A stretch of 32,000 nt of DNA from an uncultured bacterium (GTDB taxonomy: Bacteria; Margulisbacteria; WOR-1; CAVSGV01): positions 1,170,001 to 1,202,000 of the forward strand of contig OY969425.1 in the NCBI GenBank assembly GCA_963699255.1. Reading direction: 5' to 3'. How positions within the stretch are numbered: the stretch's first letter is position 1; each line of letters begins with the position of its first letter. The notes beneath the pieces are model-generated. The model saw only the letters and a list, made by a program, of their open reading frames with translations, was not told the origin of the DNA and did no database searches. The position numbers and the translations under genes were made by a program. Below, one piece after another: positions 25,137 to 28,255 of this stretch.

Positions 25137-25325
25137 ATGTCGAAGCCGAAATACTATATTTCAAATAATGATGAATTCATTATAGAGAACTATAATTTAT
25201 CTCCCACCTTTTCGAGCTTTTTCCCCGGGATCGCGGGCATATTCGGTATCCCCATGTGGGTCTTCTACGCGAACCGCGGGCAGTGCATCACGTCTTTCGG
25301 GTCCAGGACAAGGATGGATCGATAA
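25137..25325 (+). CDS. N-terminal fragment (62 aa) of the large GH94-related protein; probably joined to the next ORF by a -1 frame change near 25299-25303
   Basis: KYYISNNDEFIIENYNLSPTFSSFFPG parallels the N-terminus of the in-window GH94 enzyme ([28 protein letters not shown]). The downstream frame is already open from 25256. A TATAAT at 25120-25125 lies upstream. Confidence 0.55.
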   Translation: MSKPKYYISNNDEFIIENYNLSPTFSSFFPGIAGIFGIPMWVFYANRGQCITSFGSRTRMDR

Positions 25326-28255
25326 TGGAATTCCAGCCGGCGAATAAAGCTTATAAAAACGTGGCCCTCAACGGCTTTCGGACATTCCTGAAGATAGACG
25401 GCGTCTTTTACGAACCTTTCAGCGAAAGATGCCAGAACAACAGCAAGATGATAATCTCTCCTCATGACCTGACCATCGTCGAGGAGAACAGGGCATTGAA
25501 GATCAGGGTGGAAGTGAATTACTTCACCATGCCCGGAGAAAGATTCCCGGCGCTCGTGAGGACACTAAGGGTCGAGAATCTGGCGAACAAAAAACGAAAG
25601 GTAGAGGTCGTTGACGGCCTCCCCTCATTGATCCCATGCGGGTTCATGAACTCCCTATTAAAGAACATGAGCCAGACGATAGAAGCCTGGAGCCTGGTCG
25701 AAAACCTTGAGAACGACGCGCCCTTCGTAAGATTAAAAATAGTGCCGTCGGACGCTCCCGAAACGAGATTGTCCGAGAGGGGCAATTTCTACGCGTCTTT
25801 CATGGATCAGGACGGTAAAAGATCTTCACCCAGGATAATAATCAGGCGAAAAGAGATCTTCGGCGAGGTCTCCAGCCTTGAATACCCGGGAAATTTCATG
25901 GAAAAGAATTTCAGGATATCCACTATACAGATGAAAGAGAATTTCATCCCGTGCGCTTTCTCATTTAAAAGATTGGAGCTGCCGGGAAAGAAAGAATTCC
26001 GGCTCTTTTCAGTAATAGGGAATATCGACAGCCCCGAGGTCCTCAATAAAGCAAAACAGAGGATACTGAACAAAAAATACATCGAGGAAAAAGCGCGGGA
26101 AAACAGGAGCCTTATCGACGGGATAACTTCAAATATCTTGACGGTCAGCAGCTCAAAAAGTTTCGATCTGTACACGAAGCAGTCCTTTCTTGATAACGTC
26201 ATGCGCGGCGGCCTGCCTATAAGCATAGGGAACAAGCCTTTCTATGTTTATTACAGGAAACACGGCGACATGGAAAGGGATTACAACGACTTCAAACTCC
26301 TCCCTTCTTATTTCTCACAGGGCTCGGGCAACTACAGGGACATAAACCAGAACAGGAGGAACGACCTGTTCTTTAATCCTGTAGTCAACTCGAGCAATAT
26401 CCAGAGGTTTTATAACCTTATCCAGCTTGACGGCTTCAACCCTCTGGTAGTGCTCCCGAGCAAATATTTCATCGCGTCAAAAGATACCGCTGAAAAGATC
26501 GTCGCGAAACACGTTAAAAGCCGCGGCAAGGAAGTCTCCAGGATCATCTCTAAACCATTCCTGCTGGGCGTATTGCTGAATGACCTTGAAAGGTCGAGGT
26601 GCACGTACGCGTCATCGATAGAGGACTTCATTGAAGAACTTATCTCCAAAGCCGAGAAAGTTGAGGAAGCAAGCCACGGCGAGGGATACTGGACGGACCA
26701 CTTCTCCTATAACACCGACCTTCTCGAATCGTTCGAATGCATATACCCCGACAGGATCAGTGACCTTCTGTTAAATAAAAAAGAATTCACCTTCTTTGAC
26801 AGCGAATTCACCGTTCAGGAAAGAAAAAACAGGTATGTGATCCAGGGCAATAAAGTAAGGCAGTTCGGCAGCGTGAAGTCCGACCCCGAGAAGAAAGCCC
26901 TGATCAAATCGAGGTCCGCGAACAAGAACACCGTGAGAAAGGAAAATGGAAAAGGAGGCATCTACTTCACGACCCTTATAACCAAGCTCCTGTGCATCGC
27001 GGCGAACAAGGCCGCGTCATTCGATGCGGAAGGAATTGGCATAGAAATGGAGGCAGACAAACCCGACTGGTATGACGCGTTGAACGGACTGCCCGGATTG
27101 TTCGGGTCATCCATCTCCGAAACTTTCGAGCTAAAGAGGCTCTGCTCTTATGTTGTTGCTCATATAAAGCCTGATACCAGGGCATCGATCCCTGTCGAGC
27201 TTAAGGAATTCATTGATGATATCGCCGGATGCATGGATGAAAATGACAGTTTTAAATACTGGGACATGTCGAACTCACATAAAGAAAGCTACCGCAGGAA
27301 GACGCTGTTCGGGATAAGCGGTTCGGAATTGGAAGTGAGCGGAAGCTACATTGCCGATTTCTTGAACATGGTGATCGGCAGGTGCGATAAAGGGATTAAA
27401 AAGGCTCTTAATAATTACAAGAATTACTATACATATTATATGAACGAGGTTTCGGACTACGAGCTTGAGAACGGCAAGATAATAGTGAAAAAGTTCGACC
27501 AAAAGCCGCTGCCTCTTTTCCTTGAAGGATTTGTCCACGCGCTTAAAGTGGAAAAAGACCGTAAAATATACGGGCTCGTTAAGGACAGCCCTCTCTTCGA
27601 CAAGAAACTGAAAATGTACAAAGTGAATTCCCCTTTCAACGGCGTTCCGGTGGAGATCGGGCGCGCGAAGGTCTTCACCCCCGGATGGCTTGAGAACGAA
27701 TCCATATGGCTGCACATGGAATACAAATACATGCTCGAGCTTTTGAAGTCCGGCATGTACGAGGAATTTTTCGGCGATTTCAAGAACGTGCTTGTGCCTT
27801 TCATGAAGCCGGCTACATACAAGAGAAGCACGCTTGAAAATTCATCTTTCATCGCCAGCAGCGCTTACCCCGACAAGGACAGCCACGGAAGAGGATTTGT
27901 GGCCAGGCTGTCGGGCGCGACAGCGGAGTTCATCGACATGTGGCTCTGGATGACCACAGGCAAGAACATCTTTACCGTCGACAAGAACGGGAAACTGGTT
28001 TTCAAGCTATCTCCGATACTTCCGAAGTGGCTGTTTGATAAGGGAAAGTTCACCTTTAATCTTCTGGGGTCGACCGAGGTCATATATATTAACAGGACTG
28101 GAAAAGATACTTTTGGCGGCGGCGCCGCACCGGTTTCATACAAGCTTTTCCTTGATAATAAAGAGGTTGCTATCAATGGGCCTATAGTAGCCGAGCCGTA
28201 CTCGACCATGATCAGGAACAGGAAAGCAAAGAAAATAATTGTAACCCTGTCCTAA
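25325..28255 (+). CDS. Large uncharacterised protein, main body (frame open from 25256; about 1,040 aa if joined to 25137-25301). Putative GH94-related glycoside phosphorylase or hydrolase.
   Basis: 999-codon open frame. GNYRDINQN (RD at 26336-26341) and KPDWYDALNGLPG (27065-27085) echo the GH94 motifs GFRDSNQD and ADWNDCLNLGG seen in the gene at 30551+, and in the same order. The first in-frame ATG, at 25325, overlaps the upstream TAA (TAATG). Confidence 0.75.
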   Translation: MEFQPANKAYKNVALNGFRTFLKIDGVFYEPFSERCQNNSKMIISPHDLTIVEENRALKIRVEVNYFTMPGERFPALVRTLRVENLANKKRKVEVVDGLPSLIPCGFMNSLLKNMSQTIEAWSLVENLENDAPFVRLKIVPSDAPETRLSERGNFYASFMDQDGKRSSPRIIIRRKEIFGEVSSLEYPGNFMEKNFRISTIQMKENFIPCAFSFKRLELPGKKEFRLFSVIGNIDSPEVLNKAKQRILNKKYIEEKARENRSLIDGITSNILTVSSSKSFDLYTKQSFLDNVMRGGLPISIGNKPFYVYYRKHGDMERDYNDFKLLPSYFSQGSGNYRDINQNRRNDLFFNPVVNSSNIQRFYNLIQLDGFNPLVVLPSKYFIASKDTAEKIVAKHVKSRGKEVSRIISKPFLLGVLLNDLERSRCTYASSIEDFIEELISKAEKVEEASHGEGYWTDHFSYNTDLLESFECIYPDRISDLLLNKKEFTFFDSEFTVQERKNRYVIQGNKVRQFGSVKSDPEKKALIKSRSANKNTVRKENGKGGIYFTTLITKLLCIAANKAASFDAEGIGIEMEADKPDWYDALNGLPGLFGSSISETFELKRLCSYVVAHIKPDTRASIPVELKEFIDDIAGCMDENDSFKYWDMSNSHKESYRRKTLFGISGSELEVSGSYIADFLNMVIGRCDKGIKKALNNYKNYYTYYMNEVSDYELENGKIIVKKFDQKPLPLFLEGFVHALKVEKDRKIYGLVKDSPLFDKKLKMYKVNSPFNGVPVEIGRAKVFTPGWLENESIWLHMEYKYMLELLKSGMYEEFFGDFKNVLVPFMKPATYKRSTLENSSFIASSAYPDKDSHGRGFVARLSGATAEFIDMWLWMTTGKNIFTVDKNGKLVFKLSPILPKWLFDKGKFTFNLLGSTEVIYINRTGKDTFGGGAAPVSYKLFLDNKEVAINGPIVAEPYSTMIRNRKAKKIIVTLS

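Follow-up and report, generated by a model that had tools for sequence, protein, structure and literature searches.

The locus and its reading frames

The window examined here is a 32,000-nt stretch of contig OY969425.1 from an uncultured bacterium of the Margulisiibacteriota/Saganbacteria lineage. Between sugar ATP-binding cassette (ABC) transporter genes on one side and a GH42 and a GH94 gene on the other, it carries a large coding region at positions 25137-28255 that is divided over two overlapping reading frames. The first open reading frame (ORF), frame A, begins with ATG, extends from 25137 to 25325 and encodes 62 amino acids (aa). The second, frame B, begins with GTG, extends from 25256 to 28255 and encodes 999 aa; it overlaps the frame A ORF and is free of stop codons from at least position 25202. 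An original prediction, made from the sequence alone, placed both frames correctly, joined them by a -1 shift into one protein that echoes GH94 phosphorylases, and saw in it a candidate new family of glycoside phosphorylases. The evidence below supports the join and points to a single gene, but its predicted product belongs to an existing family, GH161.

The frames meet at TTCGGGTCC, where frame A is read through GGG (25299-25301) and G25301 is re-used as the first base of frame B. The joined product has 1039 aa, with ...CITSFG from frame A followed directly by VQDKDGSIMEF... from frame B. Beyond the join, frame A continues for 8 out-of-frame codons and then reaches its stop at 25323-25325. 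In a tblastn comparison, the intact ORFs of all 15 relatives align with window frame 3 for residues 1 to ~57 and then with frame 2, and the switch point lies at 25295-25313. Alignment at the DNA level shows that the window is one base short of the relatives, the third base of the Gly55 codon being absent. The window sequence is TTCGG-GTCCAG versus TTCGGAGTGCAT in relative L001 and TTCGGCGTTCAG in relative L003, the Gly55 codon of the relatives being GGA or GGC followed by GT. The coding sequence is thus interrupted by a one-base deletion in the Gly55 codon that splits the ORF. The frameshift is present in none of the relatives compared, either in the DNA alignment or in the tblastn search of 15. 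These alignments indicate that 25137-28255 is one gene with a single-base frame change at the G-run, and not two genes.

Relatives and the possibility of two coupled genes

More than 2700 homologues were found. Those listed that cover the full query, with identities as low as 45%, are each one protein of about 1000-1150 aa. Each of the close relatives from Margulisiibacteriota/Saganbacteria (63-90% identical) has one ORF of about 1040 aa amid the same neighbouring genes; in those that were fetched (84-90% identical), this single ORF encodes 1039-1049 aa and its locus is syntenic with that of the window. For two of these, 90% and 84% identical, the flanks were also compared; both share with the window the substrate-binding protein (SBP) gene, glmS and a small reverse ORF as neighbours, and in both the ORF is intact. 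An alignment of homologues had been proposed with the original prediction as a way of deciding whether the gene is one ORF or two, and it shows single ORFs, not two separate genes.

The alternative that had been offered is a pair of translationally coupled genes, whereby a 62-aa peptide and a 976-aa enzyme work separately or as a split enzyme. It was suggested by the TAATG sequence, which is found where the original prediction put it and in which the frame A stop overlaps a start codon. The public annotation also gives a 976-aa product, P0001, that begins at this ATG. P0001 is the only 100% match to the window protein and is evidently the public annotation of the same gene; beyond it, the protein database has no other sequence that is at least 90% identical. 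The window protein is not among the GTDB representatives scanned, and the best match there is 78% identical. However, the gene encodes one polypeptide in all relatives examined, and in the DNA alignment the bases of TAATG correspond in the relatives to a conserved pair of in-frame codons, ATA ATG (Ile-Met). By this alignment, the stop/start overlap is coincidental. A 976-aa product would also lose six beta-strands of the N-terminal sandwich together with 16 invariant residues, and the conserved loop 56-63, including the invariant K59, would be encoded by neither piece. Two coupled genes are thus considered very improbable.

Assignment to family GH161

The original prediction had named profile searches and AlphaFold with Foldseek as a check, with an already-defined CAZy family as an outcome that would count against it. 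Such a family, GH161, is what these searches returned. In a phmmer search of PDB sequences, the joined protein matches 9qqk_A (“GH161 phosphorylase / GH161A”) with an expectation value (E) of 5.6e-238. The match extends over query residues 10-1034 and chain residues 4-1033, is unbroken across the frame join, and has 42.6% identity; the related entry 9h8v is matched as well. With a profile of 33 homologues, the score is 1100 bits for GH161, 109 bits for the GH149 protein Pro_7066 (6hq6) and 29 bits for the GH94 laminaribiose phosphorylase (6ggy).

Structure modeling gives the same order. The AlphaFold model of the joined protein has a predicted local distance difference test score (pLDDT) of 83 and a predicted template modeling score (pTM) of 0.89. 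Its secondary structure runs from beta-strands (1-300) through helices (300-360 and 390-940) to a further beta region (945-1038). With Foldseek, template modeling (TM) scores are 0.90 to 9gy9 (“bacterial beta-1,3-glucan phosphorylase from family GH161”) and 0.88 to 9qqk ([quoted passage not shown]), and the superposition on these two structures spans about 1050 columns. The scores are 0.73 for GH149, 0.67 for the GH94 laminaribiose phosphorylase and about 0.56 for GH94 cellobiose phosphorylases. A ranking of GH161 above GH149 and of GH149 above GH94 is that expected of a GH161 member within clan GH-Q. The protein thus shows similarity over its full length to established GH161 members and is closer to these than to GH149 or GH94. 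The original placement of the protein among phosphorylases of the GH94/GH149/GH161 clan is borne out, and sequence and model together identify the predicted product as a full-length member of CAZy family GH161, a family established in 2019 (PMC6484121). A literature search on PDB entries 9qqk, 9h8v and 9sr2 found nothing relevant.

In favor of the original reading, a glycoside phosphorylase family not yet described and separate from GH94, GH149 and GH161, is that the protein lacks family matches. It matches no Pfam family at E<=1, including the GH94 families PF06165 and PF17167, and its sole NCBIfam match is partial and below threshold (GH149 NF058639, 92.4 bits versus a cut-off of 1150). The same Pfam scan readily detects the neighbouring gene, in agreement with its description in the original prediction as a bona fide GH94 (Table 1). 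The absence of a Pfam match shows only that Pfam has no model that detects GH161, and is thus a gap in Pfam and not a sign of novelty. A new family was rejected on the end-to-end match to solved GH161 proteins, the profile score and the two TM scores given above, and its probability is considered negligible.

In a comparison with known systems, the window protein has the same length, about 1040 aa, as the GH161 proteins PapP of Paenibacillus polymyxa and THA_1941 of Thermosipho africanus and those of entries 9gy9, 9qqk/9sr2 and 9h8v. It shares with GH161 the four-domain fold, the WxD catalytic loop, the motifs RKHGD, GNYRD.NQNRR, GWLENES..H and RLSG, and the genomic association with GH94 and ABC-transporter genes. 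It differs in its source, an uncultured member of the Margulisiibacteriota, whereas described members come mostly from Firmicutes, Thermotogae and heterokont algae. Its loop is WYD, like that of 9qqk, whereas that of THA_1941 is WND, and its ORF is frameshifted in the assembly. GH149 (Pro_7066, 6hq6; NF058639) belongs to the same clan as the window protein, shares its fold and its motifs for catalysis and phosphate, and likewise carries a long insertion that GH94 lacks; however, identity is only 16% and the NCBIfam score falls far below the cut-off, so the protein is not a member. GH94 (6ggy, cellobiose phosphorylase and the window gene at 30551) shares the overall architecture, the inverting phosphorolysis chemistry and the DW(N/Y)D and ENxxxxxH motifs, but identity is 10-15%, TM scores are 0.55-0.67, and GH94 enzymes mostly act on disaccharides.

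Conserved motifs and the predicted active site

All 33 homologues share W645, D647, R374, H376, R401, D402, E853, H860 and S904 without exception, and the window protein has each of these residues; it also has S926, in the sequence RLSG, which is near-invariant. W645 and D647 lie in the WYD loop, R374 and H376 in RKHGDMERDYN, R401 and D402 in GNYRDINQNRR, and E853 and H860 in GWLENESxWLHMEYKY. In profile alignments, the WYD loop falls on EWND of GH149 Pro_7066 and on ADWND of the GH94 laminaribiose phosphorylase, the region of the GNYRDINQN motif falls on RRHGD...GNWRD of Pro_7066, and LENESxWLHM falls on KENGAMFSHM of GH94.

The catalytic and ligand residues given for the GH161 protein THA_1941 are W623, N624, D625, E840, R345, R373, S891 and S913 (bioRxiv 10.1101/2025.04.05.647330). 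The spacing between E853, S904 and S926 in the window protein (51 and 22 residues) is identical to that between E840, S891 and S913. D647, the predicted counterpart of THA_1941 D625 (WND loop) and of the Asp of the DWND loop in GH94, lies in an intact W-x-D loop such as is expected of GH161. The protein also has the conserved residues of the -1 subsite and of phosphate binding (two Arg, one Glu, one His and two Ser), which would be equivalent to those of the characterized enzymes.

The original prediction had noted an echo of GH94 in three places, in the same order. The second and third of these, GNYRDINQN and KPDWYDALNGLPG, are by the profile alignments genuine, homologous clan motifs, the third bearing the putative catalytic Asp as had been proposed. 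A direct comparison by hhalign of the joined protein with the neighbouring GH94 fragment did not reproduce this echo; it gave only a weak match (probability 50%, E=1.6e-4) in a segment other than the motifs. The echo of GH94 is thus confirmed only indirectly, through the alignments with PDB profiles, and is a real but very distant signal. The difference in spacing between the motifs holds: they are 244 aa apart here, whereas their counterparts in the GH94 fragment, at 353 and 471, are 118 aa apart, which corresponds to a large insertion of about 126 residues relative to GH94.

Proposed function

By homology, the gene would encode a cytoplasmic GH161 glycoside phosphorylase of the Margulisiibacteriota/Saganbacteria lineage. 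Acting at the non-reducing end, the enzyme would cleave glucose from beta-1,3-gluco-oligosaccharides of the laminarin type that have been imported, with the use of inorganic phosphate, and alpha-glucose-1-phosphate would be released. Asp647 would serve as the general acid, Arg374, Arg401, His860, Ser904 and Ser926 would hold the phosphate, and Trp645 and Glu853 would hold the glucosyl unit. The downstream GH94 phosphorylase may then finish off the disaccharide, as has been proposed for GH161-GH94 pairs.

That proposal comes from the study that founded the family, in which GH161 genes were found to adjoin GH94 and ABC-transporter genes; its authors proposed that GH161 trims beta-1,3-oligosaccharides after import until the disaccharide is left for phosphorolysis by GH94 (PMC6484121). 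The original prediction had viewed the neighbourhood of sugar ABC genes, GH42 and GH94 as one of glycan metabolism; this agrees with the present findings, and such a context had already been published (PMC6484121). The sequential model appears to fit the window locus.

The assignment extends the known range of GH161 to uncultured Margulisiibacteriota/Saganbacteria, and the conserved locus with GH94 fits a sequential phosphorolytic use of laminarin-type glucans. Since the gene is unnamed in the public record and is without a Pfam model, many such genes are labelled “hypothetical” or “cellobiose phosphorylase”. Beyond annotation, the importance of the finding is small.

Cause of the frame change

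The comparisons with relatives indicate that the frame change is an unprogrammed indel. A programmed -1 ribosomal frameshift or transcriptional slippage at the G-run has also to be considered, as a -1 event within GGG would bring back precisely the conserved sequence and yield a full-length enzyme. However, TCT TTC GGG does not fit the pattern X XXY YYZ of a slippery heptamer, folding of the 99 nt downstream is no more stable than that of shuffled sequences (z=-0.06), and none of the relatives has the shift. Three G in a row are also too few for efficient slippage. A programmed event is thus extremely improbable.

The reading that one GH161 phosphorylase gene, with a predicted role in beta-1,3-glucan phosphorolysis, has its frame broken by an unprogrammed indel is given a probability of about 0.9. 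As to the origin of the indel, a sequencing or assembly error is favored as the most likely cause, and a very recent inactivating mutation is a possible, less probable one. Lineage-specific codon changes, as the ratio of synonymous to non-synonymous, are 76:29 in the window and 68:18 and 159:73 in intact relatives. The window ratio is like that of the intact relatives and there is thus no sign of relaxed selection; purifying selection has acted essentially up to the present. The adjacent GH42 gene bears a second one-base indel, and both indels are at short homopolymers. Breaks of this type are also found in related metagenome-assembled genomes (MAGs): in locus L006 (14000-17700) GH94 is broken into six or more ORF pieces and GH42 into two, and in locus L033 (4584-6410) glmS is likewise in two. 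These multiple frameshifts look typical of error-prone long-read assemblies, and the size of the window contig, 1.77 Mb from an uncultured lineage, suggests a long-read assembly here as well.

Several points weigh against this reading of the gene. Identity to the solved GH161 protein 9qqk is only about 43%, and the chain length of the substrate, and even the linkage preference, are deduced by homology at that distance. The equivalences with residues of THA_1941 are likewise deduced, from motif spacing and from the alignments with GH149 and GH94. In addition, both indels of the window are found in two adjacent glycan genes, whereas roughly 27 other genes of the 32-kb window look intact. By our own arithmetic, the chance that two random errors would both fall within these 5.3 kb is about 3%. 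The clustering would be mildly unexpected for random errors, and leans somewhat towards real, locus-specific mutations.

If the indels are genuine, GH161 and GH42 could be recent pseudogenes in a lineage that is losing its locus for beta-glucan phosphorolysis. The presence of two one-base indels in neighbouring glycan genes, while other genes of the window have full-length Pfam coverage, is in keeping with this. However, the synonymous/non-synonymous pattern is like that of intact relatives, so that any inactivation could only be very recent; no break is found in the GH94 portion; both indels are at short homopolymers, as sequencing errors are; and many such breaks occur in the related MAG loci. 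Recent pseudogenes are thus regarded as doubtful. It is also unlikely, though to be kept in mind, that both indels are genuine and mark the first step in the discarding of the conserved SBP-glmS-GH161-GH42-GH94 beta-glucan locus. Less likely is that, with genuine indels, a 976-aa enzyme truncated at its N-terminus is still made by way of an accidental restart at TAATG. The two frameshifts are thus either a caution on assembly quality or a small hint of gene loss.

Features of the locus and neighbouring genes

The features of the GH161 locus are listed in Table 1.

Table 1. Positions of the GH161 gene, its motifs and associated features in the window
Feature	Position	Strand	Remarks
Single permease gene of ABC transporter	20161..21084	-	Divergent from substrate-binding protein gene
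Substrate-binding protein gene of sugar ABC transporter	21279..22613	+	Upstream in conserved locus
Promoter-like TTGAGG-16-TATAAT	25098..25125	+	10/12 matches; ends 11 nt before ATG
Predicted GH161 gene, codons 1-55, frame A	25137..25301	+	First six beta-strands of N-terminal beta-sandwich; 16 family-invariant residues
Frameshift site TTCGGGTCC	25296..25304	+	DNA alignment; tblastn frame switch in 15/15 relatives
Predicted GH161 gene, codons 56-1039 and stop, frame B	25301..28255	+	
TAATG	25323..25327	+	Frame A stop overlapping ATG of annotated 976-aa product P0001
GNYRDINQN motif, residue 398	26327..26353	+	R401 and D402 invariant; aligns with GNWRD of GH149
Catalytic loop KPDWYDALNGLPG, residue 642	27059..27097	+	W645 and D647 invariant; D647 predicted general acid
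Strong hairpin just past GH161 stop, probable transcript end	28284..28349	+	-36.2 kcal/mol; z=-5.8
GH42 gene, frameshifted	28403..30482	+	Frame 2 to stop at 30044-30046; C-terminal ~147 aa in frame 3 to 30482
GH94 phosphorylase gene, first 483 codons	30551..32000	+	Starts 30551/30560; runs off window; PF06165 6e-88, PF17167 6.7e-67

The GH161 leader is very short and is without a Shine-Dalgarno sequence, and the block TGTATAAT...ATG is conserved in relatives L001 and L003. This arrangement, being kept in both relatives, suggests that the lineage has leaderless or nearly leaderless mRNAs. With a promoter before the ATG and a hairpin after the stop codon, the GH161 gene looks like a transcription unit of its own. 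The hairpin does not have a T-run, and the equivalent spacer in L001 differs in sequence. The GH42 promoter (28364-28405) likewise has a good match to the -35 and -10 sequences, with TATAAT 10-11 nt before the ATG and no Shine-Dalgarno sequence, and this arrangement too is conserved in L001 and L003.

In the GH42 gene, one surplus base lies in the junction ATACCCGGCG near 30036, and a 702-aa GH42 homologue in L033 aligns across both window frames. The GH94 portion aligns with L033 in one frame, at 88% identity.

The order SBP - glmS - small ORF - GH161 - (GH42) - GH94 recurs in about 20 loci of Margulisiibacteriota/Saganbacteria, and does not recur in the fetched GH161 loci of Firmicutes, Proteobacteria and Spirochaetes. 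Near the sugar ABC genes (20161-22613) neither a second permease gene nor an ATPase gene is found, and the same is true of L003; incomplete transporters at GH161 loci have been noted before (PMC6484121).

Between glmS and GH161, on the minus strand, is a 142-aa ORF (24546-24974) that matches no Pfam or NCBIfam family; L001, L002 and L003 have a conserved counterpart, about 50% identical, in the corresponding place. Two ORFs are found farther upstream. One, of 268 aa (1709-2515), also has no Pfam or NCBIfam match; before it lies a stretch of 309 bp without coding sequence (1400-1709), in a region otherwise dense with genes. The other, of 334 aa (10879-11883), joins only the C-terminal half of SBP_bac_5 (profile positions 195-348 of 368) to an Ada zinc-binding domain, and has an unusual architecture or is possibly a gene remnant.

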